A stretch of 64,000 nt of DNA from Candidatus Elulimicrobiales bacterium (GCA_034927475.1 JAYFPW010000006.1:9197-73196), one strand, 5' to 3'. Counted from the stretch's first letter, positions 3,631 through 51,305 are shown. Notes: generated from the sequence alone by a model not told the origin. Numbers and translations: made by a program.

Positions 3631-4752
3631 TTACTTATTAAGAGGCATTAAAAGGTATGTAAAACTTTCATCTTTTGCGTCTTTTATAAACATTGGCCTA
3701 TTTCCTTGTGTAAAAAGTAATTCTACTTCGTCACTTACAATATGAGAAATACCGTCTAAGAAATAATTACTGTTATAGCTAGCTAAAATATTTTCACCAG
3801 TCATTTCGTTTGGAACAATATCTTTATCCAAAGCTCCAATTTTGTCATTTTTAGACTTTGTTTTAATAACTTTCTCTTCAGTGTTTATATCAAAATCTAC
3901 ATAAGAATAATTATTAACAAAAATAGTAGATAAATTAAGGGTGTTTCTTAATTCTTGCTTATCAACTTTAATTTTTGTAGTCCATTCTTTAGGAAAGAGT
4001 TGTTTATAATCTGGAAAATTTCCGTTGATTGATCTAATAGATAAAGTTGTATTGTTATTTTGAATGGTTAAAATATTTTCACTGTTATAGATCTCTATTT
4101 CACTTTCTTCTTCCTCATTTTCTTCTTGTAAACTTTCAAGAATAGAAACTTTTTCATTAATATTTTTCTGTGAAATTAAAATATTAATATCTTCACTATT
4201 ATTAAAAACTATTTTCTTCTCTGCTAACCTAAAAGAGTCAGTTGCTACAGAAAAAAGTTCTTCATTTTTAGAGTATAAATAAACCGATGAAATCTCTGGT
4301 TTAATTTCAGAAGTAGAAGCGCAAAAAGAAACTGATTTTATAAGGTTTATATAAGTTTTTAAATTAATATTTGTTAAATAATTTCCAGAATTAGGCATTT
4401 TTGGAAAGTCTTCTAGTTTAGTAGTTTTAAGTTGAACTTTATTTTTTAAATATAAAATATTAAAAACGTCATCAACTAGTTCACAAGTAATATTGGTATC
4501 AATATTTGAAAAATAATTTGAAATTTTTGTTAAAACATCTCCATTAATTAAACACTCTCCATTTACAACACCTTTCATAGGAATAGTTTTTTCACAAGTA
4601 AGTTCAAGGTTTGTAGCACGCATAGTCAAACTGTTATTTTCACTTTTAATATAAATATTATTTAAATAAGAGTTTAAAGTACTTTTATTTCTAGCTTTAC
4701 TAACTTGATTAATAATTTTAAAAAGTTTAATGGAGTTGATTTCAAATTTCAT
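3631..4752 (-). CDS. dnaN: DNA polymerase III beta sliding clamp
   Basis: 373 aa. N-terminus is MKFEINSIKLFKIINQVSKA...ATNLELT (typical DnaN). It has a three-domain length and sits directly downstream of dnaA. Confidence 0.85.
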   Translation of the reverse strand: MKFEINSIKLFKIINQVSKARNKSTLNSYLNNIYIKSENNSLTMRATNLELTCEKTIPMKGVVNGECLINGDVLTKISNYFSNIDTNITCELVDDVFNILYLKNKVQLKTTKLEDFPKMPNSGNYLTNINLKTYINLIKSVSFCASTSEIKPEISSVYLYSKNEELFSVATDSFRLAEKKIVFNNSEDINILISQKNINEKVSILESLQEENEEEESEIEIYNSENILTIQNNNTTLSIRSINGNFPDYKQLFPKEWTTKIKVDKQELRNTLNLSTIFVNNYSYVDFDINTEEKVIKTKSKNDKIGALDKDIVPNEMTGENILASYNSNYFLDGISHIVSDEVELLFTQGNRPMFIKDAKDESFTYLLMPLNK

Positions 4753-5089
4753 ATTTTTATAAATTAATTATATAGGATTTTTTTAAATATCAAAACTTAA
4801 AAAGTTATTCAGGTTTTAGTTTTTTATTTTTATATATCAAATACTTAATATAATTAATTTATGTTGATAAAGTTGAAAACTCTAAAACAATATTGTATTT
4901 AAATGCTAAATTCTTAATTTAAAAAACTAAAAGCGTGGAAGATGAACAAGTAAAACCTGAAATACATTTTACAGAAAATAGTATCTGTTTTAGAATAATA
5001 AAAAAAGTAAAAAGTTATCCTAAAGTTTTACACAAATATTTTTCAAATTTAAAGAGTGTTATCTAAACAATTCACAAGTTATAAACAGG
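4753..5089. other. AT-rich dnaA-dnaN intergenic region (candidate oriC/DUE component)
   Basis: 337 bp, >80% A+T, between dnaA and dnaN. It contains only degenerate DnaA-box-like 9-mers (TTATCCTAA, TTATCTAAA, TTATAAACA). Assigned by position, not by a strong motif. Confidence 0.35.
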
Positions 5090-6436
5090 TTATTTTAGAA
5101 TGTTATAAATTTCTTCTATTTCTTTATTTAAATAAGGATCCTCTTTTCTTTCTTTTTTAATTTTTTCGTAAGAGTGAATTACAGTGGTATGATCTTTTCC
5201 TCCAAGCTTTTCCCCTATTGTTGGATAAGAAACATCGAAATATTCTCTTAAAATATACATAATTACTTGTCTAGGTTTAACAATATCTTTTCTTCTAGTT
5301 TTATTGTAAATAAAAGAAGCGTGAATATTGTAGTATTCAGAAACAATTTTTACCACCTCAGAAATAGAAACTGATTTTTTAGAACGAACATTATTTTTAA
5401 TAAGATTTTTAATACTTTGTAAAGTAACTTTTTGATCAAAAAGTTCTATTTGAGCTTGTATAAAGTTGATAATTCCTTCTAACTCTCTAATGTTTCCGCT
5501 AATATTTTCAGCCACATATTCTATAACCCCTTCTTCTACTTTTTCTCTATTTTTAATTTTAGATCTTAGAATATTAATTCTAGATTCATAATCCGGAACC
5601 CCAATATCCACAATCATTCCTTGATTAAAACGAGATTTAAGTCTGTCTTCTAGTCCCACAATAAAGTTTGGATGTTTATCAGAAGAGAAGATAATTTGTT
5701 TATTATCATTATGAAGACTGTTAAATAAATGAAAGAGTTCGTCTTGAGTTTTTTCTTTCCCATTAATAAATTGAATATCATCCATTATAAAAACGTCGTA
5801 TTTTTTATACTTTTCTTTAAAATTATTAATTTTTTGACTATTTATAGCGGAAACAAATTCTAAATAATATTTTTCAAGAGAAGTATAAAAGACTTTTTTA
5901 TCAGGATAGTTATTTTTGACAGTGTTTCCGATAGCCTGAATTAAGTGTGTTTTTCCTAGGCCTGTATTTCCATAAATAAATAAAGGGTTATAAACAATAC
6001 CAGGGTTTTTTATAATAGCCTGAGAAGCTGCATGAGCTAATTCATTAAAACTTCCAACAACAAAGTTGTTAAAAGTGTATTTTTGATTTAAGCCGTCATC
6101 TTTGTTTATGTAAAGATCTTGAAGAGGAAGAGAACTGGTTGGCTCTATAATCTTGTTTTTCGCTTGCACAGCCTTCTTTTGAAGGGTTTCTAATTTTACA
6201 GTATGAAAATCTACCCCTCTCACATCTTCATGTATTTCTCTTAAAACTCTTAATATAAATTTATGATGTTTTTGAAGAAGCCACTCTTTAACAAAATCAT
6301 TTGGAACCCCTATTATTACAATACCGTCTTTATAATTAATAATTTGAGTGTTTCTAAACCAAGTGTTGAAATTTACACGTGACAATTCTAATTCTATTCT
6401 CGATAATGCCATGTCCCAAATTTGCTTGTAATCCAT
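5090..6436 (-). CDS. dnaA: Chromosomal replication initiator protein DnaA
   Basis: Walker A GNTGLGKTHL, AAA+ core, and a C-terminal DNA-binding domain (VSYPTIGEKLGGKDHTTVIHSYEKI). Confidence 0.95.
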   Translation of the reverse strand: MDYKQIWDMALSRIELELSRVNFNTWFRNTQIINYKDGIVIIGVPNDFVKEWLLQKHHKFILRVLREIHEDVRGVDFHTVKLETLQKKAVQAKNKIIEPTSSLPLQDLYINKDDGLNQKYTFNNFVVGSFNELAHAASQAIIKNPGIVYNPLFIYGNTGLGKTHLIQAIGNTVKNNYPDKKVFYTSLEKYYLEFVSAINSQKINNFKEKYKKYDVFIMDDIQFINGKEKTQDELFHLFNSLHNDNKQIIFSSDKHPNFIVGLEDRLKSRFNQGMIVDIGVPDYESRINILRSKIKNREKVEEGVIEYVAENISGNIRELEGIINFIQAQIELFDQKVTLQSIKNLIKNNVRSKKSVSISEVVKIVSEYYNIHASFIYNKTRRKDIVKPRQVIMYILREYFDVSYPTIGEKLGGKDHTTVIHSYEKIKKERKEDPYLNKEIEEIYNILK

Positions 6437-11707: not shown

Positions 11708-13540
11708 TTATGCGGCCCGTTGTCTTTTTTTCTTAGCTTCCAAAAGCTGTGCCGGATTAGTTGTAACTATTTGATCTTCAACATAAGAAGAAATAACTTT
11801 TATAGCCACATGTTTTTGCCCAGCAAAGAATATTCCTTCCCCTACTCCAGAACTAAGTAATAAATACTTTTCTTCATCTGTAAGATTAAAAGTTTTTTGG
11901 ACCAGATCTATACTAGAAGGAGATTGTTTTAAAAGTAAAAGCATACTTGAGTTAGTAATAATAGGTAAACCGTAAGCTGAACGCAAAAAGTCTCCTACGT
12001 CTTGAGAAATTACAGACAAACCTAAATAATATTTTCTTCCCCTTTTTGCCATTCCAAACAAAAAGGATGCAGTGTCTTCATTTTTCATCATTATCCAAGC
12101 CTCGTCTATAATTAAAAGCCTTTTCTTTAACTCTTTTCTAATCTCTCCCCAAATATAATGAGTAATAATATACATAGCGACAGGCTTAAGCTCATCCTCC
12201 ATGTCACGAATAGAAAAACAGATTAATTTTTTATTAATATCAATATTAGAAGGTTGCCCAATAAATCCTGACCAGACCCCTTCTGTATATTTAGAAAGTC
12301 TTTGTAAAACACTTTCAGATCCCTCAATACCAGAAAGTACTTCAGCAAAATCTCCTAAGACAGGAAATTCTATACCATCTAAACTTTCGGTTGCCGAGGT
12401 TATATCTTTTATCGCATAAGTTTCTGTTAAAGCTCTATCGACAATAGAATCCTCTTCAGGAGTAAGTCCGCCAAGCATTACTCGCATGAGCCCTACCAAG
12501 TGAATAATATTACTTCTCAAAACATCACCAACAGATTCATCTTCTCCGGGTATTGCTAAATCGAAAGGATTAATGTGATGATCTGAATTTAAAGATATAT
12601 TAAAATATCTACCACCAACAGATTCCGCTAAATATTCATACTCTCTTTCAGGGTCGATGATAATAACATTGGTATCAAACATTAAAGTACGTAAAATTTC
12701 AAGTTTTGTGTAATAAGATTTACCAGATCCAGAAGTAGCAAAAACCATACTGTTGTAGTTCTCAAGAGAAAATCTATCAAATAAAATTAAAGAGCCATTA
12801 TGTCTATTTAAACCATATAAAATACCACTATTTGTTGAAAGGTCGAAAGAAAGAAATGGAAAGAAAGAAGAAAGTGGAGAAGTATTTAGCTGAGTAGTGA
12901 TTTTTATTTCATCTACACAAAAAGGCATTATAGTTTTTAAAGCTTCAGCTTGCTGAAAGAGAGCTGGTCTTAAATAAATAAGCTTACTTTCTAAAATATT
13001 TTTAATTTCAGTTTCTACTTTTTTTAATTCATCATCGGTATCTCCAAAAATCGTAATATAAAGACCAACTTCAAACATCTTTTCACTGGATTGTTGAAGA
13101 GAGTCTCTCAAGTCTTCCAGGTCTCTTAAAGCTGTTTCTAATTTTGGATCACGAACTTCACCTTTTTCTTGCTTTACATAAATTTGACTCTCTATTTCTA
13201 CCACTTTCTTTTGAAATTTTTTCATCATTTCAGCTGTAGCTAAAGGGGTGATATGAATAGAAACATTAAAAATTTTGTCTAGATTAATAATTGGGGCCAA
13301 CCAAGAATCATCTAAATATCTAGGATAAGATATAACAAAAAAACTTTTAGCTAATTTTCCAGAAAGATTTAATTGTTGTGCGTCGACTTTTAAGCCGGCT
13401 GGAGCTATAAAATTTTTCAATTCTGAACTAGCCTCATCATAAACTTCTTCTTTAGAAGGTTCTTCATTTAAATTTTGTTTATTATTTTTTGAAAAAATAT
13501 CTAAAATACCCATAGCTTTATAATTTTTTTGTATTAACAT
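11708..13540 (-). CDS. virB4: VirB4/TrbE/CagE-family T4SS ATPase (C-terminal ATPase part)
   Basis: Walker A FATSGSGKSYY, Walker B LLIIDEAWIMM, and the motif GRKYYLGLSVISQDVGDF. Confidence 0.85.
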   Translation of the reverse strand: MLIQKNYKAMGILDIFSKNNKQNLNEEPSKEEVYDEASSELKNFIAPAGLKVDAQQLNLSGKLAKSFFVISYPRYLDDSWLAPIINLDKIFNVSIHITPLATAEMMKKFQKKVVEIESQIYVKQEKGEVRDPKLETALRDLEDLRDSLQQSSEKMFEVGLYITIFGDTDDELKKVETEIKNILESKLIYLRPALFQQAEALKTIMPFCVDEIKITTQLNTSPLSSFFPFLSFDLSTNSGILYGLNRHNGSLILFDRFSLENYNSMVFATSGSGKSYYTKLEILRTLMFDTNVIIIDPEREYEYLAESVGGRYFNISLNSDHHINPFDLAIPGEDESVGDVLRSNIIHLVGLMRVMLGGLTPEEDSIVDRALTETYAIKDITSATESLDGIEFPVLGDFAEVLSGIEGSESVLQRLSKYTEGVWSGFIGQPSNIDINKKLICFSIRDMEDELKPVAMYIITHYIWGEIRKELKKRLLIIDEAWIMMKNEDTASFLFGMAKRGRKYYLGLSVISQDVGDFLRSAYGLPIITNSSMLLLLKQSPSSIDLVQKTFNLTDEEKYLLLSSGVGEGIFFAGQKHVAIKVISSYVEDQIVTTNPAQLLEAKKKRQRAA

Positions 13541-14105
13541 CTAACTCATTTGGATTAAATAATTTATAAAATAGTCCAACAATTTCTTCCGTGTCTATCA
13601 GTTTTAATTTTAATCCTAAAGCGGTAAGTCCGCTAACCACAATAGAAACTCTTTGCATTAATTGATTTTCATTTTTTATAAAATCCATTTCATTCATTCT
13701 TTTTGTATTTCCAACAAGTGTTGGAATATCATAAGGAACAACTATGTAAAAATTTTTCGTCATAATATTTTGTTCCTCAGTAAATTTTTGTATAAAATCC
13801 GTATATTCTTTTATTTGAATCTTTAAAAGCTCTTCAGAAGCCTCTCTTTCCCTCTCCTTTAAACTTTTTATATAATCACGAATGTCAATTTTTTTAGATT
13901 GAACAAAAATTTGAACATTAAAATCCAAAGAGTTTAAAAAGCTTTGAAAAGCGGTAATAATTCCCATTTGTTCATCCTCACTTTTTAAAGACAAGTTTAA
14001 AGAAGTGGTCGAAAGAATAGCTCTCATGTTGCCACTATTTAAAATAATCACCCCGCTTCTAATTTCTCTAATTGGGACAAAATTTTGAGAAGAGTTTTTT
14101 GCCAT
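13518..14105 (-). CDS. VirB4 N-terminal domain encoded as a separate ORF (overlaps ATPase ORF by 23 nt, different frame)
   Basis: 195 aa resembling the N-terminal region of VirB4/TraC proteins (IPIREIRSGVIILNSG..., SLKSEDEQ...FQSFLNSL). Together with 11708-13540 it sums to ~800 aa, the normal VirB4 length. Confidence 0.55.
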   Translation of the reverse strand: MAKNSSQNFVPIREIRSGVIILNSGNMRAILSTTSLNLSLKSEDEQMGIITAFQSFLNSLDFNVQIFVQSKKIDIRDYIKSLKEREREASEELLKIQIKEYTDFIQKFTEEQNIMTKNFYIVVPYDIPTLVGNTKRMNEMDFIKNENQLMQRVSIVVSGLTALGLKLKLIDTEEIVGLFYKLFNPNELDVNTKKL

Positions 14106-14134
14106 GCTTCTATTATAGCATCAGAAAATAGATA

Positions 14135-14614
14135 CTAAGAATTTTTTGTCTGATTTCTTTTAATAAGTTCTTCTCTTAAATTGACAGCGTGTTTTTTATC
14201 TTCGTCTAAAATATCTAATTTTCCAGACAACTCTCTAATTTTATCAAAAGGACTTTTTTCTTCCTCAATTTTATTTTTCTTTAAAAGATCGATAGCTCTT
14301 AAGTCTTTTTTAGGCTCTTCTTTTTCGATTTTTTTCTCTTGATACCAAACATAAGTTTTGTTTCCAATTAAAAATTTATAAGCTGATTCTAAAATGTCAG
14401 CAAAAGGTCTATTATTTATTTTGACAAAAGCTAGAGCCACAAAAGTTCCAGAAAAAATAAGAATTAAAGGCACAGCTATAATTTTTGCAGGAATAATTCT
14501 CCAAAAAAGATATCCAAAAGCTATAGCCCCCAACAGATACCCAAATTGTTTGAGAGTAAAAGGACCAAAAATCTTATCTTCAATGTCCAAGAATTGAGGA
14601 AGTCTAAATTGCAT
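14135..14614 (-). CDS. PrgI-family / VirB3-like small membrane protein
   Basis: 159 aa with LPQFLDIEDKIFGPFTLKQFGYLLG followed by two TM helices. It sits immediately upstream of VirB4, as in Gram-positive T4SS. Confidence 0.55.
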   Translation of the reverse strand: MQFRLPQFLDIEDKIFGPFTLKQFGYLLGAIAFGYLFWRIIPAKIIAVPLILIFSGTFVALAFVKINNRPFADILESAYKFLIGNKTYVWYQEKKIEKEEPKKDLRAIDLLKKNKIEEEKSPFDKIRELSGKLDILDEDKKHAVNLREELIKRNQTKNS

Positions 14615-14644
14615 GTTTATATTCTATCATTTTTAGCAAAGAAT

Positions 14645-15781
14645 CTAAAAAGCTTCTCTATAGGGATCAAAATTTTCATCAACACTTTCTGGAATCTCTT
14701 CAGACAAAGTACTTTTATAATAGTCATTATTTTTAGCTTTTTGAATTTCTATCTCCTCTTTCTCTCTTTGTTGTCTTAAGGTATCTAAATTTGTTTTCTC
14801 ATCCTCATTTGCAGACAGCTTCTCTTTTAAGTTTTCGACAAGTATTTGACTGAAATCTTCATTTTTGAGAGCTAAAGGATTTTCTTCTGGATATTCTAAT
14901 TCTTCTTCAATTTCCTTTCTCTTAGTCTCCTCTTCTTTTTCTTTGTTTCTTATTTCAGCAACCCTTTCTTCCTCTCTTTTTTCTTTAGCTAAAACTCTTT
15001 GCATTCTTTCATCTTCCTCTCTTTTAATTTGAATCATTCTTTCTTTTATTTTATCCGTATCAGACACATTCTGCATATTTATTTTTGCCAACAAAGAATC
15101 TCTATTCATTTCTTGAACCTTTTTTTCTTCTTCTTTCTTTTTTTCTTCCTCTTTAATAAGCTCTTGTTCAGTCTTCTCTCTTTCTTTATACTGAATTAGA
15201 GGTTCCCCTTTGCCAGTTATAGTACCAGTTCTTTGTAGAAGAATTTTTCTTAGCTCTTCTTTTTCAGCTTCTTCCCTTTTTTCTTTTAAAGTAAGATGTC
15301 TTATTTCTCTTTTGTTTTCAAGTTTACTTTCTAAAATATTTTTACGAATATCAGTAAGAATATAAGTGTCTATACTTTTCAAAATCGAACTTGCTGTAAA
15401 AGATTCCAGCATGATACCGCTAGAGCTAAAACTTTCAACCAGAGTTTCTTTGGCTTCATTAATAGGAAGAAGCCCAACTAAAATTGAAACAGCAATATTT
15501 TCAACAATAACTCTCGCTTTTTCTCCTTCTAATTTTTCTATTTTGCAAATCAAGCGAACACTCTCTTCAAGCTTGTCTCCTAAAATATAGTCTTGTATCA
15601 CTTTTGAAGAATTTGAAAAAGCGGTATCAAATTGAGTAAGGACAATATTTTCATTTTTTTGTGGAGGTTTTTCAGGTTCCTTTTCAGGATTTAAAAAATC
15701 ATAGTCAAAGTCAGCCTCCGTTTCATTTAAAGAATAATCGCCCTCTTTTAGTTCTAAAGCTAATTTATTTTCTTCCGACAT
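14645..15781 (-). CDS. Glu/Lys-rich coiled-coil protein (T4SS-like operon)
   Basis: 378 aa, acidic N-terminus and a long charged coiled-coil region. No catalytic motifs. Confidence 0.5.
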   Translation of the reverse strand: MSEENKLALELKEGDYSLNETEADFDYDFLNPEKEPEKPPQKNENIVLTQFDTAFSNSSKVIQDYILGDKLEESVRLICKIEKLEGEKARVIVENIAVSILVGLLPINEAKETLVESFSSSGIMLESFTASSILKSIDTYILTDIRKNILESKLENKREIRHLTLKEKREEAEKEELRKILLQRTGTITGKGEPLIQYKEREKTEQELIKEEEKKKEEEKKVQEMNRDSLLAKINMQNVSDTDKIKERMIQIKREEDERMQRVLAKEKREEERVAEIRNKEKEEETKRKEIEEELEYPEENPLALKNEDFSQILVENLKEKLSANEDEKTNLDTLRQQREKEEIEIQKAKNNDYYKSTLSEEIPESVDENFDPYREAF

Positions 15782-15815
15782 AAAATAATTATATCAAATA
15801 AATTAGGTTTTTTAA

Positions 15816-18659
15816 TTAAGAGGCGTTTTTTAGAGGTTCCTCAGGTGTCATATTTTTAGTTTTTGTATTAGTATTTTCTCCAGTTTTTTCTCGTAAGTGT
15901 TCAATAATTCTTTTTTTACTTGCAAAATTTGCTTGCTTAAATTCATCTCCAAACTGTTGCTCATTATTGTCTAGTATTTCCCTTACAGTATTACTTTGAA
16001 TAGTTTTTGGAGCTTCTGCTGTACTTTTTGTGCCACCACGATTTACTACGACAACTTCAGGTTTGCTAGAAGTTTTTTTCTCTTTAATATCAGAGCTCTC
16101 TTTTTTTTCTTTTCCCAGTTTTGATTTTCTCTCCAATCTCTCCCTTTCTCTTTCAGATACTCTAAAGTCTGCTAAAACTTTGGAAAGGCTCATATAGGCT
16201 TCTCTCGGATTGAGTTCTTTTAATGCATTTAAGAATTCAGTTTTTAATTTTTCGTTTTCAGGTTTTTCTAGATTTTGTGAAAAATAGTTCTCTCCTTTAC
16301 CTTCTTTTAGAAATTCTTTATCTATAGAAGCTTTTATCTCTTCTTCTTTGTTTTTCATACTCTCAGCACCTGTGCCAGGGTTATCTTTAAAAGTTTGATT
16401 AACATCCTGGAGGAGGTTTTGGGATTTTTTATCTCCAAATAAATCTTTTTCTAATTCCCCTTTCCTCTTTTCTGAATTTCCTAGTACAGTATTCCAGTGC
16501 TTTTTATCAGACTCAGAAATATCTTTTTCGCTTAATTTTTTTCTAGCATAAGCTATATCAGACTGAACTGTACGCAACTCCGATTTCTTTTGTACATTTT
16601 CTTCCAAAGCTTGTTTGTTAGGATTTTTCTTTCCAATATTTCTTGCGTCAAACGAAGAGGTGCTTAATGTCCTGTCAAGCTGACGTCCTCCAGCGGCTAA
16701 TATTTGATTTACACGCTTAGTTCCATCTTCATTTTTTCTTATCCAACCTTGGAATTTGTCCGAATTTGATACAGCTGTAGCTCCACGTCTCATAACAGCC
16801 CCCGTGGTACCAAGTGCAAAATTACCTACAAAGCCACCTACTTTTCCAGCGACTTGACCACCAAGATCAGAACTCATTTTTTTAGAAACTGTAATAGCTA
16901 ATTGTAAAACTACTATAATAATTGCGGAAGCCACACTAGCCCCCATAAAAGTATTTCCTGCTTCACCAGCTCCAGCCATACCAGTAGAAAGTGAATTTAA
17001 TTGAGGATTATTTTGTAAAGAATCTCTAATGGCAGCACCTATTTGTAAAGCTATCAAAACTATAAACATAAAAATCGGAGCAGAGATTACAGAAGTGGTA
17101 AAGCTTTTAATTACCATGTCTCTATATTTATCAATATATTCATTTATACCAGCAGGTAAAAGCATTAATGGAGAAAAAATTAAAACTAGAAGTAAAATTA
17201 TGGCTCGCATAAGTAGTAGAACCATACCTTGAACCAACACGAGAACAGCTACACCATTAATAACTATTTTTATGGCTTGGAATAAAGTAAAACCCCAATC
17301 AGCTCTAGCTGCTCCCAAAGATCTAGTATCGATAGCTAAAACATCAGCCAAAGCATCACCCAAAGTTTCTCCAGGATTATGCATACTTCTATAAATATAA
17401 ATAGAAAGAACGTTTGTTTGATCTATAATCCAGCCAACAATAGCAAAAGAGAAATATACAAATAGAGCTGTAATTAAAATTCTTGGAAGTATTTTTTTAA
17501 TTTTAGAAGTGTCATTATCAATAAGCATTCTAATAAGCATGTAAAACACTATAGGCAGAAGTAGGGATGTTACTAAAGATAAAATAACATTCCTCCAAAC
17601 TAAATAAGCATTTGAATTAACTACCCAGTCATTAAAATTGTAAATACTAAAACGGACAACCCAGTCAAAAATTCCACCAACAAGTTTTGTTAGTCCTTGT
17701 AGTAAAGAATTTATTCCTTCTAAAACTAGATTTACTAAATAAGCCGCAACAGAACAGTTTGGACTTTGCATAACACCCCAAAGACCTGTCGCCTCACAAA
17801 CAGTTGGGGTTTCGTAAGATTCCACCATAACTTCCCCTGAAGGGTTAGTTATAGGACTAGAGGGATTAGTTTTAGGTCCCCCACTAGTTTCTGTTGGGAC
17901 AAAAAAGGTTTCTCCTTTATAAGGAAACTCTGCACCAGTTTTTTCGGCGTCGCTCAAAGTCTTTTTATCTTCACCTCCCAACCAATTCCAACCAGAAGGA
18001 TTTTCGGTTTGATTTTTTATTTCATTTGCAATATCTTTAATACCTTGAGGTATTTTTTCTAACTCTAACACAGTCCGGCCTTCTGTAAGAAAGTCATTAA
18101 TTTCTCTATATATATAGATACGCATTAATTTTGCTGAAGCCCCATCAACATCACCCTCAACAAAGTTATTGGAGACAGCCGAATTTTTCATTTTATTATA
18201 AATAGATAAATAGCTATTGTTGTGAATAGTTTTTGCCTGGTCAAATATCTCTAATAAATATTTTTTAGCCTCAGGGTAAGACGTGGAATCTACAGCATCT
18301 AATTGGTTTTTATATCCAGTAAATAATGAGTCGTATTTAGAAGAGTTATCTGTCTCATTTTTTTTAATTTTCTCTTCAACTTGATTTTGAATAGAAAGAA
18401 GATCTGATGATGGTATTGGTATGTAATCAGTAGAGTATGAGCCAGCACCAAAACTTCCACCTGGAATATATGTGCTTTCTACTTTATAAGATGTTGTTGC
18501 CGTCATCAAAACAGACGTGTCTTTATTGTCTAACTTTATTCCAACAACTATTTTGGCTTCCGTGTTTTTTATACCTAAACTAAAAAATCCTAGAACTATA
18601 AATAAAATAATTCCAAGTGTTTTTGTGGAGAAAATAGAAGAAAACTTTTTCCTTTTCAT
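15816..18659 (-). CDS. VirB6/TrbL-like polytopic membrane protein with large N-terminal ectodomain and charged C-terminal extension
   Basis: 947 aa. It has a signal/TM, a ~400 aa extracellular region, a central block of >=6 TM helices (VILSLVTSLLLPIVFYMLIRML ... AIILLLVLIFSPLMLLPAG ...), and a K/E-rich ~300 aa tail. Confidence 0.5.
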   Translation of the reverse strand: MKRKKFSSIFSTKTLGIILFIVLGFFSLGIKNTEAKIVVGIKLDNKDTSVLMTATTSYKVESTYIPGGSFGAGSYSTDYIPIPSSDLLSIQNQVEEKIKKNETDNSSKYDSLFTGYKNQLDAVDSTSYPEAKKYLLEIFDQAKTIHNNSYLSIYNKMKNSAVSNNFVEGDVDGASAKLMRIYIYREINDFLTEGRTVLELEKIPQGIKDIANEIKNQTENPSGWNWLGGEDKKTLSDAEKTGAEFPYKGETFFVPTETSGGPKTNPSSPITNPSGEVMVESYETPTVCEATGLWGVMQSPNCSVAAYLVNLVLEGINSLLQGLTKLVGGIFDWVVRFSIYNFNDWVVNSNAYLVWRNVILSLVTSLLLPIVFYMLIRMLIDNDTSKIKKILPRILITALFVYFSFAIVGWIIDQTNVLSIYIYRSMHNPGETLGDALADVLAIDTRSLGAARADWGFTLFQAIKIVINGVAVLVLVQGMVLLLMRAIILLLVLIFSPLMLLPAGINEYIDKYRDMVIKSFTTSVISAPIFMFIVLIALQIGAAIRDSLQNNPQLNSLSTGMAGAGEAGNTFMGASVASAIIIVVLQLAITVSKKMSSDLGGQVAGKVGGFVGNFALGTTGAVMRRGATAVSNSDKFQGWIRKNEDGTKRVNQILAAGGRQLDRTLSTSSFDARNIGKKNPNKQALEENVQKKSELRTVQSDIAYARKKLSEKDISESDKKHWNTVLGNSEKRKGELEKDLFGDKKSQNLLQDVNQTFKDNPGTGAESMKNKEEEIKASIDKEFLKEGKGENYFSQNLEKPENEKLKTEFLNALKELNPREAYMSLSKVLADFRVSERERERLERKSKLGKEKKESSDIKEKKTSSKPEVVVVNRGGTKSTAEAPKTIQSNTVREILDNNEQQFGDEFKQANFASKKRIIEHLREKTGENTNTKTKNMTPEEPLKNAS

Positions 18660-18680
18660 TTATTTATTTTATCATAAATA

Positions 18681-18718
18681 AAAAACAAAAAGCGGAAAAT
18701 TCCGCTTTTTGTTTTTTA
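18681..18718. terminator. Symmetric hairpin flanked by A/T runs inside the T4SS-like operon
   Basis: AAAAGCGGAAAATTCCGCTTTTT lies between the 803-aa gene and the VirB6-like gene. It could terminate or attenuate in either direction. Confidence 0.5.
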
Positions 18719-18731
18719 AAAGAAAGCAATA

Positions 18732-21143
18732 TTATTCAGCTGCACACTCTTTAATTGCTGAGGTTATTGCGGCTTGAATAGAAGTTTCGTCTTTACAGTG
18801 ATTTCTAAGTTCAAGGTCGTCAGTATTAGCTGACTGGGCACAAATATTTCTGATTGAAATTTCCGGAGATATACAAGGGTCTGGCTGGCCTTCTAGTGGA
18901 TCTGGAATTGGTTCATTATAATCTTTCAAGGAATCAGTAAGTATTTGTAGTTCTGCATTATTACAAATACCAATCTTTAGTTGGTTACAATAAGACAGTT
19001 CAGAAAAAGTTTTTGAGCTGCTAGAGTCTATCACAGCAGTATTTTTTGCGGAAGGTCTTGGTAAATTTGGATCCAAATACTCTAGATTTTTAATACCATA
19101 AGCTGAAAACATTCCTGTATCTTTTGCTGGAATTGTTGAAGGAGATCCCGCCTTTAAAGAATCTCTTAACATTAAGTATGCCCTAACTCTTAAGTACCCT
19201 AAAACGTGTTTTGTATAAGGTCCTTCCACTTCTCTTCTTGATGGAACATAATAGGAAGCGTCTTCTTCTATTGCTGCAACAGGGTCAGAAGTTAGTTCGG
19301 AGTATTCTGGAATATATTGCCAATCGGAGATAAGATATTCATAATCTTTTTCTGTATAAGCCCCATCCAAAGCTTGCGCTAAAGCTTCTTGATTATTTTG
19401 CGTATCAACATCTTTTGTGTCTCTTAAATCCATTAAAAGTTTTCTCATTTGTTGTTCGCGATAATTATTTTTTGCCATTTCTTTGATGAGATCTCTTGTT
19501 TCCATTGTTTGATTTACCAAAGCTACAGTTAATTTTTTTGCAGCGTCCGTCTTATTTGTAGCAGATTTTCGAATATTTTTACTTTTTCTAGGATAGAAAA
19601 TACTTTTCCAAAAACCTACATTCATAGCATCCTGTTGAGCATTTACGACGGCTGTTTTAGCTCTTTCTACAGAAGTTTTTAATACTAAGTAAGTATATGA
19701 ATTAGTGTTTAACCTTTCAGTATTTACTATTCTTATATTTTCATAAATATCTAAAGCTCTTTGCAAGTCATCTGAAGAATATTTTTCTGAACCAAAAGCA
19801 TACTCTCTTGAAGCTTCTTCTGTGCTAACCCAAAGAAGATTTTGAGTGTCTTGGGTTTTTTGTAAAGCACCTAGAGATGTTGCTAGTCCACTATAAGGGT
19901 TGTCATAAGGATTATTTGTCACGGCATAAATATCTTTTCTACCAACATTTATTATTGAGGAGATTAAGTTCATTGTATCAGCAGCGCCAGTAAGATCTCC
20001 ATTTTTTAATTTATTATGAATAGAGTCTAGTCTGGCTTTTATACTATCGTAAGGTGCGTTTGCAGCAGCGGAAACTTTTTCTTGCAAAACAGCACCACTT
20101 CCTTGAGCTGTAGAGGTTTGTTGAGAGCAGAATTGTGTAGCGTCTTCAGGGTTAAATTTTACCTCTTTACCATCTTTATCTACACATTTTTGGTCCCCTA
20201 AAAACATTCCTGTAGCTTCAGTTTGTTTTGATGTAGCGTCAACGACTTTATCTTTTTGGGCTAAAATATTAGAGATAGCTAAGTTAACAACCCCTGAAGG
20301 TGTGTTAGCTGGATTAGCAAGAGCTTCACTGGTTCTTGGTCCTCCATAGCCAGCGTTAGCTAAACCAATAAATACAGCTTGAGCTCTAGCGGCTTCTTTT
20401 TGTGGTTTTTGTAAACTAGTATTACATAATTTATCTATATCTACATCACCAACTGCTTTTTTTGGGCGAGCAAAAGTTTCTGGTTCTCCATTTTTTATTA
20501 TATTTTTTAATTCAGGACTATTACAAATTTCATCTTTTACTATATAAGGCAAACTAAAGTTTACGACTTTTCCTAAAGCTGTATCTGAAGTATTTTTTGT
20601 AAAATCAGCAATGTCTTTATAGATGTCTGCTGTGTATGGAGTCGTGTTTACCGTAAGTTGTATATTAGATAGACCCTTTTTAATTTCATTTACAGAAATC
20701 ATGTCTAAATAATTTCCAAAATTAGTTACAACTTGCTGACCTTGTGTATAAATGTTTGTAGCCTGATCTCTGGTTATTCCTAAATTAGTCATAACTGCAT
20801 CGCCGACACGATTAAGGACATCGCTAGAAGCATTTTTTGCAAAAGTCTCTGCGTCAAAATTTTTTATTCCTTGCACAAGTTGTTTTGCCGCTAAAGTGTT
20901 TTGGTAAATAACCATACTGTCATTTATAAGCTCTTTAGCTTGAACAGCTTTATCTGCTATCCATTTTGCTGTATCTTGACCAAAAATAGCCCCGAGTATT
21001 ACATCTCCAGTATCTCCTACACCTAAAAAAGCAGAAGCTTTTTTAGGTAATAAGCTAGGAGTCAAAAACGAAAAAATTAAAATCAGAGCCAATATTTTTT
21101 TAGAAATTTGTTTTATATTTATCATATTTTTATTTTTAGTCAT
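18732..21143 (-). CDS. Large secreted protein (candidate surface/pilus-associated component of T4SS-like system)
   Basis: 803 aa with a signal peptide (ILALILIFSFLTPSLLPKKASA) and a Cys-rich C-terminal ~80 aa. No enzymatic motif. Confidence 0.5.
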   Translation of the reverse strand: MTKNKNMINIKQISKKILALILIFSFLTPSLLPKKASAFLGVGDTGDVILGAIFGQDTAKWIADKAVQAKELINDSMVIYQNTLAAKQLVQGIKNFDAETFAKNASSDVLNRVGDAVMTNLGITRDQATNIYTQGQQVVTNFGNYLDMISVNEIKKGLSNIQLTVNTTPYTADIYKDIADFTKNTSDTALGKVVNFSLPYIVKDEICNSPELKNIIKNGEPETFARPKKAVGDVDIDKLCNTSLQKPQKEAARAQAVFIGLANAGYGGPRTSEALANPANTPSGVVNLAISNILAQKDKVVDATSKQTEATGMFLGDQKCVDKDGKEVKFNPEDATQFCSQQTSTAQGSGAVLQEKVSAAANAPYDSIKARLDSIHNKLKNGDLTGAADTMNLISSIINVGRKDIYAVTNNPYDNPYSGLATSLGALQKTQDTQNLLWVSTEEASREYAFGSEKYSSDDLQRALDIYENIRIVNTERLNTNSYTYLVLKTSVERAKTAVVNAQQDAMNVGFWKSIFYPRKSKNIRKSATNKTDAAKKLTVALVNQTMETRDLIKEMAKNNYREQQMRKLLMDLRDTKDVDTQNNQEALAQALDGAYTEKDYEYLISDWQYIPEYSELTSDPVAAIEEDASYYVPSRREVEGPYTKHVLGYLRVRAYLMLRDSLKAGSPSTIPAKDTGMFSAYGIKNLEYLDPNLPRPSAKNTAVIDSSSSKTFSELSYCNQLKIGICNNAELQILTDSLKDYNEPIPDPLEGQPDPCISPEISIRNICAQSANTDDLELRNHCKDETSIQAAITSAIKECAAE

Positions 21144-32759: not shown

Positions 32760-34181
32760 TTAGTTTACTAAGACAGAAGGAGAGGTGTTTGTTGATAAGA
32801 CCTCAAGAGGAAGAGATAGAGGAACTTCATAAAATACAATCTTACACCACCATGATGTTGTTGGGCATGTTACTGGAGGAGGAACATAAGAACTATCGCC
32901 ACCTCCACCCCCTCCACCATTCATCATAATAGTATCTGCTTCCAAAGCTTGGATTAAAGCATTAGCTTTCTTTATATTTAAGAATTTCTCTAAGTAATTA
33001 AGCATCTCGCAAGGCTTTCTAGGGTCGCTACAATCTCCAGGAACAGTTGGTAAAGGTTTTGGACAAACCTTAGTTTCTGGAACAATTGATCCATCAGGAC
33101 AGGGTTTATAACAAGTTGCAGTTGTAACAACCACAGTTCCGTCTGCACAAGTCTTAGTTGCTGGACAATTTTGAGTGGAAGGTATACTACTTCCATCAGG
33201 ACAAGTTTTAATTGTCGGAGTGGTTGGAACTGTTGGGGTTGTTGGACAATCTTCAGTAATTAAAACTCTACCTCCACTCGGACAAGATTTATATTGATCT
33301 GTAACTAAATTCCAAGAGCCTTTGTTTATGACATTTCTATTAGGGGTATAAGTTGTGTAAGATGGTCTAAATTTGAATTGGGCTACATATTGTCCAGGAT
33401 CTGCGTTTGTCGGTATAAATACAGAAGATGGAATTGCTTCACTACCATACACATAAGTTCTTGATAAAATAGGGCGCTGTCCAGTATTTACATCTATAAG
33501 AGTGGGGGTGTATGGTTCAGCATAGGCATAGCTACTAACATAAAGAGGAACATTAGCGGTATTTTTATCTACAAGGATAACGTCATGTGCTTCGCCAGAT
33601 GTATAAGTGCTACCTCCACTACCATATCGATCAGCGATATACCCAGTATATGAAAAAGTACCCTTTATATTACGCTGAGAATCTATATATACATCACTTA
33701 AGTTGGTAATTGTGAGGTCTACAATAGTATTTCCATAATTATCTCTCAGGTCTATACTACTAGCATTCCAGACGTTGAAGACCTGACGCCCCTCTAGGTA
33801 CACAGTATTTTTATTTGAGTCTAGATAAAAAACAGGAGCTTGAGAGAGTTGTTTAAGAGTTAAGAAAGAGCTTGTATCTGGTCTTCCTATTTCGAAGTTA
33901 TAATTGTACATATATAACGTTTGAGCATGGGTTGCTCCATTTGCACAACGTATATCTTGTTTAGGGTTTACATAGACATAAGGTGTGATAGTGTCTCCAG
34001 GTTTAAATTTCCCAAGACTACCACCAGTTAATCTATACTCTACAACGAGAGATGCATTTGAAGAGGATTGGGTAGGATCGGTAAAAGTTACACTAAATAC
34101 ATCTGCGCTTGCAATTTTTGCGGCGGAGAAGAATAAGATTGGAGTTAATATTGCAAAGATTATATTTTTATTAATTTTCAT
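32760..34181 (-). CDS. Secreted protein with Pro/Thr-rich linker and poly-Gly tract
   Basis: 473 aa with a signal peptide (IIFAILTPILFFSAAKIASA). The C-terminal region has repeated C-P-x-G-S/T motifs and a GGGGGGG run. Confidence 0.5.
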   Translation of the reverse strand: MKINKNIIFAILTPILFFSAAKIASADVFSVTFTDPTQSSSNASLVVEYRLTGGSLGKFKPGDTITPYVYVNPKQDIRCANGATHAQTLYMYNYNFEIGRPDTSSFLTLKQLSQAPVFYLDSNKNTVYLEGRQVFNVWNASSIDLRDNYGNTIVDLTITNLSDVYIDSQRNIKGTFSYTGYIADRYGSGGSTYTSGEAHDVILVDKNTANVPLYVSSYAYAEPYTPTLIDVNTGQRPILSRTYVYGSEAIPSSVFIPTNADPGQYVAQFKFRPSYTTYTPNRNVINKGSWNLVTDQYKSCPSGGRVLITEDCPTTPTVPTTPTIKTCPDGSSIPSTQNCPATKTCADGTVVVTTATCYKPCPDGSIVPETKVCPKPLPTVPGDCSDPRKPCEMLNYLEKFLNIKKANALIQALEADTIMMNGGGGGGGDSSYVPPPVTCPTTSWWCKIVFYEVPLSLPLEVLSTNTSPSVLVN

Positions 34182-34209
34182 ATTTTTGTTGTTAAATTTA
34201 TAATAAAGA

Positions 34210-35553
34210 TTATTTATCCTCGACCTTTTGTTTTTTAAGAAGTAGAATTCCGACAGCTATTAAAACTAGCACTAAAATTAATACCACTACATATATTGCG
34301 TTAGCATTTGCAAAAGAAAAGCTAGCTTTAGGAATATTTGCATTTATTTGTACATTTGTCACAGGATTGTTTAAATCAATCTTTGTGGTATCTAAGACAT
34401 TGCCATTATCATCTAATATACTTACTTCGGCTATAGCTCCGTCACAAGTTTTATCAATTGCCACCTTAATAAGATCTTCTCCTAAGATCTCAGGTGTGGC
34501 AACTTTTTTATTTACAGAACCACAAATATTTCCATTAGAATCTTTGATATCTATCTTAGTACGATATGTAGCATCGCTACCAGGAAGTCTTGAGAAGGAG
34601 AAGGTGTCAGCAGAAGCTGTCCAAAGAACTTTCACTTGTGCTTCATCTCCAGCTACATAATTAGTCTTATCCATTAAAACATTTTGAATAGTTGCTGATA
34701 CTCCAGAAATAACGTAGTGTAAAAATACTGAGTAAGAAACTTTTTCACCTTTACTATTAATTAAGAAAGTATCGATATCATACGCTTGTGGTGTAGTCTG
34801 AGTAGGGACTGGAAAAGTTATTGTCTGAGTACTCTTCCCTTTAATGGTAATAGGGTCTGGTAGAATTTCATTAGTCAAAATATCTCCCAACTGATCTCTT
34901 TTATGGGTAATAAGTTGTAATCTTAAATCATCTCCCTTCAAGGTATTATTTGTTATCTCACAAGAAGCAATTAATTTTTCTACTCCAGCTTTGATCGTCA
35001 CCCCTTCACCAAAGGCGTATGTAGTATTAGGATCATCACCCTCTACTTTCAAATAACACTTATCTACATCTAACCCAGAACTATTTTCAATGGTTATATA
35101 TTTTTCTGGAAAACTTGTAGGAGAAGTTGCTAAAAGTAGTCCATTTTGATTTTGAGCTACTATAAGCATTCTATAAACTCCATCAGAAATATAGTCCGGA
35201 ATTGTGTATTCCAGTGTTATTTCTTTTTGATCATTCTCTCCCAGAGTTATAGCCTTATTAACCAGGTATATATCAATAGGTTTATTATTGTATCTCCTTA
35301 TTAATTGAATACCGTATCGAATATTTGGTTGTATACCTTCTCTGTTAGTAAATACAAAAGATACAGAATAAGTCTTGTTGTTAATTTTTGTACTAGTAGC
35401 ATCGTAAATATTTACAGTTGCCAATTTGACTACTTCCATTTTCGTCTCTGGAACACTGGCTGTTGTTTGAGCAACTACTCTATAAGTATTTGCTACAGCA
35501 AAAAGTGCCAAAGCTAAGAAGGTTATAGAAAACAATTTTATAATTTTTTTCAT
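34210..35553 (-). CDS. Secreted protein with C-terminal transmembrane anchor
   Basis: 447 aa with a signal peptide (LFSITFLALALFAVANTYRVVAQ) and a C-terminal hydrophobic anchor (VVVLILVLVLIAVGILLLKKQK). It is co-directional and adjacent to 32760-34181. Confidence 0.5.
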   Translation of the reverse strand: MKKIIKLFSITFLALALFAVANTYRVVAQTTASVPETKMEVVKLATVNIYDATSTKINNKTYSVSFVFTNREGIQPNIRYGIQLIRRYNNKPIDIYLVNKAITLGENDQKEITLEYTIPDYISDGVYRMLIVAQNQNGLLLATSPTSFPEKYITIENSSGLDVDKCYLKVEGDDPNTTYAFGEGVTIKAGVEKLIASCEITNNTLKGDDLRLQLITHKRDQLGDILTNEILPDPITIKGKSTQTITFPVPTQTTPQAYDIDTFLINSKGEKVSYSVFLHYVISGVSATIQNVLMDKTNYVAGDEAQVKVLWTASADTFSFSRLPGSDATYRTKIDIKDSNGNICGSVNKKVATPEILGEDLIKVAIDKTCDGAIAEVSILDDNGNVLDTTKIDLNNPVTNVQINANIPKASFSFANANAIYVVVLILVLVLIAVGILLLKKQKVEDK

Positions 35554-35669: not shown

Positions 35670-35702
35670 AAAATCACACACAAATTTGTGTGTGATTTTT
35701 TA
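35670..35702. terminator. Perfect 28-bp palindrome hairpin with T-run
   Basis: AAATCACACACAAATTTGTGTGTGATTTTTT. Confidence 0.5.
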
Positions 35703-36089: not shown

Positions 36090-37187
36090 TTAATTTAATG
36101 CTAATAAGCCAGGAAGTTTTCCGTCTTTTGCTAAATATTCGAGCATTGCGCCGCCAGCTGTAGAGATAAAGGTCTTGTTTTTTGAGACTATTTTAAGGTT
36201 CTTAACAAGAACTAAAGTATCCCCTCCTCCGATTAAAATGTTAACATTTTTATTTTTTAAAATCTTTAAAATAGCAATAGTTCCAGCATCAAACCCATCC
36301 TCGTATAAACCTAAAGGTCCATTTAATATGATATTTTTTGAGTTTTCCACTTCTTTTTTAAGAATAGCTAAAGTTGTTGGGCCAATATCTGCAATATAGT
36401 CTTTCTCTTTAAGTTTATCCACAGTTTCTACTTTTTTATTTTTTAAAATGACATCGATTGGAAGTAATAACTGCTTATTTTTAATAGAAGTTAGTAAAGT
36501 CTTTTTAATAACTGGAGAGATTTTAAAGTCTTTTTCTAAAAATGAAGAACCTGTTTCTAAATTTAAAACATCTTTTAAAATTTGATTTGCCATTCCTCCG
36601 CCAACAAAGACTTTTGCGTTTAAATCTAAAAACTTTGTTATTAAAGGTAATTTTGTAGAGATTTTTGCTCCAGAAAGAATGAGAAGCGTTTTATTTTTTT
36701 TATCTTTTGCTAATTTTAAACTCTTTTCAAGATTTTTAATTTCTATTTTTGACAAGTCTCCCAAGCTTACTTTTTTATTTTCTTTCTTAAATATTTCTGG
36801 AATGCCAACAATAGAAGCGTGTTCTCTATGCATAGTTGCAAAAGCGTCATTAATATATTCGTCCCCTAATGAAGCGAAATATTTAGCGGTCTCTTTAAAT
36901 TCTTTACTACTTTTTTTTAAAGTTTCTCCTTTCCAAAAACGAACATTATCTAAAATTTGAATATTTTCATTTTCTTTTTTATTTAATTTTTTACGTAGAT
37001 AATTTTCAACTGGCTTAAGAGAATCTTTTTTCTCCCCTTTTCCTAAATGGCTGAGAATAATGATTTTATTTTTCTCTGATAATTTTTTTATTTCTGGAAT
37101 AACAGCATCGATTCTTTCAGTGTCTCGAATGTTTCCATTTTTTTCTATTGGCACGTTTAAATCTAAACGTAAAATAATTTTTTTCAT
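36090..37187 (-). CDS. pgk: Phosphoglycerate kinase (short form)
   Basis: Has RLDLNVP, DAFATMHREHAS, and a C-terminal STAGGAMLEYLAKDGKLPGLLAL. Confidence 0.9.
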   Translation of the reverse strand: MKKIILRLDLNVPIEKNGNIRDTERIDAVIPEIKKLSEKNKIIILSHLGKGEKKDSLKPVENYLRKKLNKKENENIQILDNVRFWKGETLKKSSKEFKETAKYFASLGDEYINDAFATMHREHASIVGIPEIFKKENKKVSLGDLSKIEIKNLEKSLKLAKDKKNKTLLILSGAKISTKLPLITKFLDLNAKVFVGGGMANQILKDVLNLETGSSFLEKDFKISPVIKKTLLTSIKNKQLLLPIDVILKNKKVETVDKLKEKDYIADIGPTTLAILKKEVENSKNIILNGPLGLYEDGFDAGTIAILKILKNKNVNILIGGGDTLVLVKNLKIVSKNKTFISTAGGAMLEYLAKDGKLPGLLALN

Positions 37188-37218
37188 ATTTTTAAATTAA
37201 AAGATAATGTTGAAGAAT

Positions 37219-38223
37219 TTAAACTGTGGCTTCAACAAGTATTTTTGCTAAATCTTTTGCGGAAGAAGTTTCGTTGTTGATTAAAATTCCATCAACACTT
37301 CCTTCTTTTAAAATAGAATTAACATTGTTCAAATTAATTGGTCCACTGTATAAAATTCTGACTCTTTTAGCATTGTCTATACCAAAAAGGTTTGCTATAG
37401 CTCGTCTAATAGTGATAACTTTTTCCTGACAATCATCAACATAAACTCTGTCCATATTTAAAATCTTTTTACCAGTTTCGTAACAAATAAAAAGTTTATC
37501 AAAAAAATTATAATGAAGATTTTTCACCATTCTTTTTACGAAACTAGTGAGAAAAGTTAAATCGTCGTTATTGCTTTTAATAATTAAGACAGTTTCCATT
37601 TGATTTTGAAGAGATGTTTTTAATTTTTCCTCTAAAACTTGAAATTCTTTTTCTTTAGCTTTTAATAAAAGCTTTCTTTGTTCTTCACTTTCTTTTTCAG
37701 GATCGATTTTTTCTTCAACAACTTCTTCTTTTTTATTTTGTATATTTTTTTTACTAATACTATTTAGTCTTTGTAAAAAAACATTGTCGATTTCATTTTT
37801 CTTTTTAGATTTTTCTTTTGGTAATTCTTCTACTATTTCTGCGGGAACTTTATTTTCAAATTCGATATCGTTATTTAAAATTACAAATTTAGTACCAATA
37901 CTTTTTATTTGAGAAAAAGTCACACAGTTATTTTTATTGGTTTTATCTATTTCTTCAAAATTTTGTGCGCCAATAATTATTTTTTTTAGCTTTTCATTTT
38001 TCTTTTCTTTTACAAATTCTTGTAACGGATAAATAAAAGAAGAAGGAACAGATAAATAAAGATTCAAATCTCTTTTTTTAGGTTTCTTTTTTAATTCTAT
38101 GTCTTTTTTCCTAGCCAAGTCAGAATATTCTTTTGATAATTCTTTCAAAATGTTTTTTGCTTCTTTCAAATCAGAAACATAACCACGCCAATTTATAATA
38201 GTAATAGGAGTTTTTATTGCCAT
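37219..38223 (-). CDS. Triosephosphate isomerase-like protein, divergent, with ~80 aa charged insertion
   Basis: N-terminal ITIINWRGY is collinear with the GNWKMN motif, IIGAQN with the GAQN motif, and the C-terminal RVRILYSGPINLNNV...VDGILINNETSS with the IlYGGSV...DGaLVGGASL motif of TIM. It is immediately upstream of pgk. Confidence 0.5.
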   Translation of the reverse strand: MAIKTPITIINWRGYVSDLKEAKNILKELSKEYSDLARKKDIELKKKPKKRDLNLYLSVPSSFIYPLQEFVKEKKNEKLKKIIIGAQNFEEIDKTNKNNCVTFSQIKSIGTKFVILNNDIEFENKVPAEIVEELPKEKSKKKNEIDNVFLQRLNSISKKNIQNKKEEVVEEKIDPEKESEEQRKLLLKAKEKEFQVLEEKLKTSLQNQMETVLIIKSNNDDLTFLTSFVKRMVKNLHYNFFDKLFICYETGKKILNMDRVYVDDCQEKVITIRRAIANLFGIDNAKRVRILYSGPINLNNVNSILKEGSVDGILINNETSSAKDLAKILVEATV

Positions 38224-50967: not shown

Positions 50968-51017
50968 CATAGTTAAGAGTTTATTGCTATTTTTTTGATT
51001 TTTATTATAATTATTAT

Positions 51018-51300
51018 CTCTTTCCCAAATGATTACAGATTTTATTTTTTTAAAATCTGAGGAAAGTCGGAACACATACCTCTTCTTTGAAAGTTAAAAA
51101 GGTAGCGGGTAACGCCCGTCCATCGTGAGATGAGAGTTGCGAACAGTGACGAACCTATTTATTTAGGGTGAAACGGCTAAATACTTACCTGTGTGTAAGG
51201 TCGTGCTTTGATTTATTTCAAAGAGTGCCGCTAGAATTTTGAAGTAATTCAAAATCCAGATAAATAATCATATAAACAGAATTCCGCTTATGTGAAAGAG
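51018..51300 (+). ncRNA. rnpB: RNase P RNA (bacterial type, minimal ~283 nt)
   Basis: P1 CTCTTTC/GAAAGAG, P2 ATGATT/AATCAT, a P3 hairpin, and the conserved blocks GAGGAAAGTCGG, GGTAACGCCCG, AGGGTGAAACGG and ACAGAATTCCGCTTAT (P4 strands). It is followed by a terminator. Confidence 0.75.
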
Positions 51301-51305
51301 AATAT

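Follow-up and report, generated by a model that had tools for sequence, protein, structure and literature searches.

Does a gene that lies directly upstream of pgk, and that databases name triosephosphate isomerase (TIM), still encode that enzyme once its catalytic positions have changed? The question is raised by an open reading frame (ORF) at 37219–38223, on the minus strand, of a 64,000-nucleotide (nt) stretch of a Candidatus Elulimicrobiales bacterium genome (GCA_034927475.1, JAYFPW010000006.1:9197-73196), which is referred to in its full length as the window. The ORF encodes a protein of 334 amino acids spanning a full (βα)8 barrel, and an identical protein is named [quoted passage not shown] at NCBI. 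An initial annotation of the locus had noted by eye that the catalytic Lys and His appeared to be replaced, and had left the choice between a highly derived functional TIM and a TIM-fold protein recruited to another role. As judged from sequence, the protein is probably no longer a triosephosphate isomerase despite its database label. [quoted passage not shown]

Fold and catalytic site of the TIM-like protein

By sequence and predicted structure, the window protein is a true member of the TIM family (PF00121). The match to the Pfam profile scored 55.1 bits against a gathering cut-off of 20.1 (E = 1.1e-14), with the best stretch covering residues 195–329 only and the N-terminal half aligning weakly. 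Two independent AlphaFold2 (AF2) models contained an intact eight-stranded barrel, and the best structural matches of the predicted fold were all TIMs, which rules out membership in another barrel family. The profile alignment and structure prediction that the initial annotation had suggested therefore bear out its proposal of a divergent TIM-like gene upstream of pgk: the ORF is real, matches PF00121, is predicted to fold as a TIM barrel and lies 31 nt 5′ of an intact pgk.

Catalytic positions were mapped by a profile-to-PDB alignment and by a MAFFT alignment with yeast and Escherichia coli TIM; the two were concordant with each other and with the predicted strand ends. On this mapping, canonical Asn10 corresponds to Asn11 of the window protein, Lys12 to Arg13 and Tyr164-Glu165 to Tyr248-Glu249. 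Loop 1 (Asn11-Trp12-Arg13, 38185–38193; all parts of the gene given here are on the minus strand) retains the Asn10 equivalent and has Arg as the Lys12 equivalent, while loop 4 is reduced to a stub, Asn117-Asn118-Asp119-Ile120 (37864–37875), in place of Gly94-His95-Ser96-Glu97. The Lys-to-Arg and His-to-Asn replacements first seen by eye thus reappear in both alignments as Arg13 and Asn118, and on proper alignment the catalytic Lys, His and Glu are not all conserved. The equivalent of the catalytic Glu165 is present in the window protein, within Tyr248-Glu249 at the end of β6 (37477–37482).

Degeneration extends beyond the two positions at which it had initially been described. Loop 6 reads TGKKILNM (37453–37476) and equals the canonical PVWAIGTG lid in length, with Pro166, Trp168, Gly171 and Gly173 all lost. 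Loop 7 reads YSGP (37339–37350) in place of YGGS, without Gly209 and Ser211, and loop 8 has Asn316-Asn317-Glu318 (37270–37278) in place of Gly232-Gly233-Ala234. Glu318, which is at least 90% conserved in the family, places a carboxylate in the former phosphate pocket. Among the features of EC 5.3.1.1, the window protein therefore has Asn10 and Glu165 and is without Lys12, His95/Ser96/Glu97, the loop-6 lid and the loop-7/loop-8 phosphate gripper. It also failed the NCBIfam equivalog test, scoring 20.3 against a cut-off of 130.6 for TIGR00419 and 16–23 against 255–309 for the PRK00042 variants.

The same positions were tabulated in 21 family members and 12 canonical TIMs, with 121 canonical representatives as a control. 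The Asn10 equivalent was kept in 19 of the 20 full-length family members (Asn11 in the window protein), and the Lys12 position was Arg in 14, Lys in five and Ser in one. None of the 21 members had His95, position 118 being N, S, D or Y; the Gly94 position was an invariant Asn117, Glu97 was never Glu, and Ser96 was replaced in the window protein. At the Glu165 position, Glu was found in 15 members, Lys in three, and Arg and Gln in one each. In the control, 115 of 121 sequences carried the N-K-H-E set, four were truncated at the N terminus, and His95 was present in all 121. Loops 6 and 7 were dismantled across the whole family, and loop 8 in every member but one (P0024). Conservation within loop 6 ranged from 0.2 to 0.7 in the family, compared to 0.73–0.99 for canonical P166, W168, A169, I170 and G171, with tip positions 172–173 being variable even in canonical TIMs.

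The kinds of lesion that this family combines are carried singly by engineered TIM variants with a loop-6 deletion, K12 or H95 substitutions or E165D, made in the laboratory as single or double mutants whose measured losses range from 1e2- to 1e6-fold (PMC12874384). In that work, K12M left no detectable activity; the cost was ∼6e5-fold for K12G, ∼420-fold for E165D, ∼1e6-fold when the loop-6 tip was deleted and ∼2.3e4-fold when the loop-6 hinge was swapped. Unlike the engineered variants, the natural family adds an insertion and is maintained by selection. Another article names N11, K13, H95 and E167 as the four highly conserved catalytic residues of TIM (PMC10249627).

The charged insertion had been described as 80 amino acids long and as splitting the barrel. 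It is indeed K/E-rich, but the main insertion is 65 amino acids (residues 123–187, 37663–37857; 42% Lys plus Glu, net charge −1), and the barrel is intact: the insertion sits in loop 4 between β4 and α4, on the catalytic face directly after the former His95 position, and runs into an N-terminally extended helix α4 (residues 175–206). Although its predicted confidence is low, it carries an LLQRLNxxSKK-like motif in all family members (NVFLQRLNSISKKN in the window protein, 37744–37785), which both models predict as a short helix, with Arg152 and Leu153 invariant and Lys159 conserved to at least 90%. Two smaller insertions comprise residues 74–79 and residues 36–50; the latter (LARKKDIELKKKPKK, 38074–38118; 15 amino acids, net charge +6) follows α1 and lies between α1 and β2, on the face opposite the former active site. 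A nucleic-acid-binding basic protein was also considered and found unsupported, as the family isoelectric point of ∼9.2 is not distinctive against a median of 9.0 for the canonical representatives.

Distribution, descent and selection of the family

At 90% identity, the family falls into about 26 clusters in a set of 5.8 billion proteins; at 50% identity, it has only five representatives among 1.84 billion. Members are 308–341 amino acids long and 34–100% identical to the window protein; below them, the score falls from 231 to 113 bits, to canonical-length TIMs. Clusters with an intact reading frame number more than 25 (44–100% identity) and come from independent samples and sources (NCBI, JGI, ENA and Logan). 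Related loci are labeled Patescibacteria, Nomurabacteria, Paceibacterota and "Saccharibacteria" metagenome-assembled genomes.

In a neighbor-joining tree, the family was monophyletic and nested among canonical TIMs of the Patescibacteria (CPR) type. Lys12 was kept on deep branches, and Glu165 was replaced on five separate tips, two of which have Glu-bearing neighbors (P0022 beside P0020, and P0019 beside the P0013–P0017 group). The nearest canonical TpiA proteins (PF00121, EC 5.3.1.1) are the Patescibacteria-type P0026, P0027, P0029 and P0030. Compared to these, the window protein is without His95/Ser96/Glu97, has Arg for Lys12, has loops 6, 7 and 8 replaced and carries the additional 15-amino-acid basic insertion after α1, while the family as a whole differs in its unconserved Glu165, its ∼65-amino-acid loop-4 insertion and its inverted conservation pattern.

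Loop 8 is altered in these relatives as well. In P0026, P0027, P0029, P0030, P0031 and P0033–P0035, the second loop-8 glycine is Arg or His (LVGRAS or LIGHHS, compared to LVGGAS). These nearest canonical TIMs are probably also from Patescibacteria, and since their loop 8 is already altered, the phosphate-gripper loop had been modified before the family arose. One of them, P0033 (252 amino acids), is a canonical-length TIM with Arg at Lys12 (NWR) and GHKD compared to GHSE; its active site is otherwise intact, including His95 and Glu165, and it may be a natural K12R TIM.

The TIM-like gene is followed by pgk in every related locus examined (L001–L007, L013, L014, L019 and L020), with the order in L020 taken from position only. 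A longer shared block, with genes for a surface protein, an Exo_endo_phos protein, a Xer-type integrase, a NYN protein and a ComM-like Mg-chelatase, is kept down to members ∼35% identical to the window protein. The nearest canonical TIMs with retrievable context, P0026 (L011) and P0174 (L012), also lie directly 5′ of pgk. Because they share this slot, the divergent gene is most simply the tpiA ortholog in its ancestral position.

Selection was computed against the orthologs in L001 and L002. Across the barrel, the proportion of nonsynonymous differences (pN) was 0.05–0.075 and that of synonymous differences (pS) ∼0.64, giving a nonsynonymous-to-synonymous rate ratio (dN/dS) of ∼0.03–0.05; the loop-4 insertion had a dN/dS of 0.13–0.28, and pgk, at 0.10–0.135, was looser than the barrel. 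All of these ratios are approximate, because dS is saturated (∼1.4). Constraint is also distributed differently than in canonical TIMs, where top-residue frequencies were 0.61 in catalytic-face loops, 0.36 in opposite-face loops and 0.37 in helices. The pattern is inverted in the family (0.59, 0.77 and 0.69, respectively). The positions of GHSERR, with frequencies of 1.00, 1.00, 0.97 and 0.95 in canonical TIMs, have 1.00 (Asn117), 0.42, 0.47 and 0.37 at their equivalents in the family. Two attributes of a pseudoenzyme are found here: the protein is an enzyme homolog without residues needed for its catalysis, and purifying selection maintains its gene.

The neighboring pgk, which encodes a phosphoglycerate kinase (PGK) of 365 amino acids (36090–37187, minus strand), is a conserved operon partner and serves as an internal control. 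Its motifs for substrate binding and catalysis are intact in the window clade except for a conservative HLGRP-to-HLGKG change; therefore, degeneration is confined to the TIM-like gene and does not stem from the AT richness of the genome as a whole (GC content, ∼30%). A different situation was observed in the lineage of P0025 (L013:10945-12027; GCA_009612875.1, contig WBZR01000281.1), the most degraded of the TIM-like proteins (K12, Y95, K165). There, PGK has non-conservative changes in core motifs (GVFE to GIYK, GGG to SGV and a deletion in SHLGRP), along with Arg-to-Lys changes in two 3-phosphoglycerate-binding motifs, and the whole TIM/PGK pair may have left glycolysis.

Candidate roles and alternative readings

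The preferred reading starts from what the family shows: His95, Glu97, the loop-6 lid and the loop-7 gripper are lost in all members, and loop 8 in all but P0024. Lys12 is mostly Arg, and Glu165 is replaced on five separate tips. On the former catalytic face, loop 4 has gained a ∼65-amino-acid charged insertion with its own conserved helix motif, and strong purifying selection now acts on the strands and outer helices and on the side of the barrel away from the old active site. Because His95, Glu97, the lid and the grippers are lost, an acidic residue occupies the phosphate pocket and Glu165 is dispensable in several lineages, the protein would no longer interconvert dihydroxyacetone phosphate (DHAP) and glyceraldehyde 3-phosphate (GAP) at a physiologically useful rate. 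Selection on strands, outer helices and the opposite face, together with the conserved insertion motif, suggests a structural or binding role, which might be a non-catalytic binding or scaffolding function exerted through the outer surface and the new insertion. Since pgk is the only recurrent partner in the neighborhood, a PGK-linked role would be the leading, weakly supported guess. To the broader proposition, that in the whole clade the single tpiA has turned into a pseudoenzyme kept by selection, or into an enzyme with a new specificity, expressed together with PGK, and that the clade therefore has no triose-phosphate isomerization at all, we give somewhat less than even credence.

Several points weigh against this account. 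All members of the window subclade have Asn11, Arg13 and Glu249, with Asn or Ser at position 118, and some weak TIM-like activity is conceivable there from the sequences. The K12R and H95N mutants of yeast TIM are reported to keep some activity. The neighbor-joining tree is a simple distance tree without support values, the dN/dS ratios suffer from the saturation of dS noted above, and pgk is the faster-evolving of the two genes. The insertion was modeled at low confidence, and its position over the old active site therefore follows from topology only. The search for a second TIM, finally, covered ∼74 kb of this genome and ∼20 kb per relative.

That search bears on the possibility that another locus of the genome encodes a functional TIM, such as a laterally acquired one of archaeal type, which took over catalysis and freed the ancestral copy to diverge. 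This possibility is compatible with the pseudoenzyme reading and alters only whether the organism keeps TIM activity. The initial annotation had proposed looking for another canonical tpiA; none was found in the ∼74 kb of the genome (the 64-kb window plus a 10-kb left extension) or in ∼20 kb around the gene, up to 10 kb from it, in each of 11 relatives (12 loci, of which L013 and L014 encode the same protein). Specifically, tblastn over the window and L001–L010, with TIM of E. coli and of yeast as queries, recovered only the gene itself among the family loci; strong matches on L008–L010 were ordinary Bacteroidota TIMs that a pattern scan had brought in. The Pfam gene tables of L013–L020 contained no other TIM. 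Paralogs are also uncommon in genomes of ∼0.6 Mb. On the other side, only ∼10% of a genome is in view, archaeal-type TIMs are documented in several CPR lineages, and acquisition of a variant enzyme may precede loss of the ancestral one (Jaffe et al. 2020, PMC7304191). We rate a second TIM as not very likely, though to be taken seriously.

The absence of a second TIM from these regions is also what would be expected if the protein were still the TIM of the cell, only a slow and unconventional one. Arg13 would then serve as the cation, Asn118 would donate the hydrogen bond and Glu249 would act as the base, and such an enzyme would suffice for the low flux needs of a slow-growing episymbiont. Such a reading draws on the fixation of Glu249, Asn11 and Arg13 in the window subclade, the tpiA slot beside an intact pgk, the existence of a natural canonical-length TIM with Arg12 (P0033) and the report that TIM is essentially universal in CPR (PMC7304191). 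However, equally constrained family members have K, R or Q at Glu165 and S at Lys12, the lid and both phosphate grippers are gone with Glu318 in the phosphate pocket, and loss of loop 6 alone costs ∼1e6-fold (PMC12874384). The catalytic-face loops are, moreover, the least conserved region, and all NCBIfam TIM equivalog models score far below their cut-offs. We consider a slow TIM unlikely. Of the two roles offered initially, recruitment is thus favored over derived TIM function, given that His95 is never present, Glu165 is lost in five lineages, the loops are dismantled and conservation is inverted. Loop-6 deletion is known to promote elimination (PMC12874384), and methylglyoxal-synthase-like elimination by a lid-less TIM was considered as well; the additional loss of the phosphate site and, in several members, of the catalytic base makes it unlikely.

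The barrel could instead have become an enzyme with a different, probably phosphate-free substrate, in a pocket reshaped around Asn11, Gln87/Asn88, Asn117, Tyr248 and Glu318 with the insertion as its lid. We hold this to be quite unlikely: taken as a group, the catalytic-face loops rank below all other barrel elements in conservation, whereas an active site would show the reverse, and most of the positions that are conserved on that face are likewise conserved in canonical TIM for structural reasons. Its sole candidate base, Glu249, is unconserved, and pgk is the only metabolic gene that accompanies it in any locus. The K/E-rich stretches of low complexity, the AT richness of the genome and the strong divergence of the catalytic motifs might also suggest a decaying pseudogene or an annotation or assembly artifact. 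The intact frame across more than 25 clusters from independent samples and the purifying selection on the barrel effectively refute this, and the confident predicted fold and the conserved position and motif of the insertion speak against it too; its probability is negligible.

In the Thermotoga-type PGK-TIM fusion (NF010569), as here, TIM-family and PGK genes are coupled physically and transcriptionally, the latter probably so in the window. NF010569 is the best NCBIfam match of both ORFs, which score 51 and 209 bits, well short of its 883-bit cut-off. A fusion is ruled out by the presence of two ORFs, the TAA stop codon and the 31-nt spacer, and the order is reversed, with the TIM-like gene first. 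The TIM part of the Thermotoga fusion is catalytically competent, whereas the catalytic set of the window protein is dismantled. The L-erythrulose-1-phosphate isomerase of Brucella (EryH/LerI-type TIM paralog, PDB 11ef) is of canonical length and acts on a phosphorylated sugar; the window protein, in contrast, is without phosphate-binding loops, and no erythritol or tetrose genes lie beside its gene. A conceptual parallel is the AdoMetDC prozyme of trypanosomatids, likewise a degraded enzyme homolog that is conserved by selection and linked to a functioning enzyme (PMC6221367). The prozyme is a paralog that activates its own active sibling (PMC6221367), whereas the degraded copy in the window is apparently the ortholog itself, no active sibling was found in the searched regions, and the neighboring enzyme, PGK, belongs to a different family.

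Genomic surroundings and wider significance

The TIM-like stop codon (TAA) is separated from the pgk ATG by a 31-nt AT-rich spacer (37188–37218, minus strand). A terminator scan found no terminator-like site in this spacer, and the two genes are therefore probably co-transcribed; promoter-like hits in a promoter scan did not exceed the shuffled expectation. About 390 nt 3′ of the pgk stop codon, at 35670–35699, lies a perfect hairpin with a 13-bp stem (AAAATCACACACA...TGTGTGTGATTTT) flanked by T-runs on both strands, likely a bidirectional terminator for the TIM-like/pgk transcript. Directly 3′ of pgk, at 32760–35553 on the minus strand, are two large ORFs (447 and 473 amino acids) without a Pfam match. 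Both have N-terminal hydrophobic segments, the second also has a Pro/Thr/Cys-rich repeat (CPDGS, TCP), and across most of the clade both (families 5 and 8) stay in place beside pgk; their products are probably located at the cell surface. No glycolytic gene besides pgk was found among the 40 Pfam-annotated ORFs of the window, and none in the 10-kb leftward extension of the contig; extension to the right added no sequence.

Elsewhere in the window, a bacterial class A RNase P RNA is encoded at 51017–51305 on the plus strand (score 102.3; Rfam gathering score, 100). At 289 nt against a 367-position model it is a reduced form, with four tRNA genes within ∼1 kb and a fifth ∼2 kb off on the other strand. 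The region 11708–21143 (minus strand), near the dnaA/dnaN origin region (3631–6436), contains a VirB4/TraG-like P-loop ATPase (11708–13540) downstream of a run of same-strand ORFs without any Pfam match, including ORFs of 947 and 803 amino acids; it may encode a type-IV-secretion-like or pilus apparatus.

TIM is the "perfect enzyme" of textbooks, with four catalytic residues that are taken to be invariant. The family described here challenges that assumption and, if the broader proposition on the whole clade is correct, would be to our knowledge, and in the literature searched, the first natural TIM lineage without His95, with a dispensable Glu165 and with a new loop-4 domain. The searched literature held no account of a catalytically dead TIM or of TIM absence in Patescibacteria and no paper on the STL-PAT8 genome, and the description of Elulimicrobium came without metabolism. 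NCBI and JGI label the family proteins "triose-phosphate isomerase" and the Pfam threshold is passed; therefore, presence/absence surveys based on hidden Markov models (HMMs) count them as TIM, and the family calls into question the conclusion, drawn from HMMs, that all CPR bacteria have TIM (PMC7304191). If the clade had no triose-phosphate isomerization at all, it would be a break in the "universal" TIM-GAPDH-PGK core module of CPR metabolism. If the protein is inactive, metabolic reconstructions of the clade would be wrong at a central node, with DHAP and GAP not interconverted, and this would bear on how episymbionts obtain or dispense with glycerol-phosphate and upper glycolysis. As a counterpart to decades of mutagenesis, such a natural clade would reveal for which other purposes a TIM barrel can be retained.
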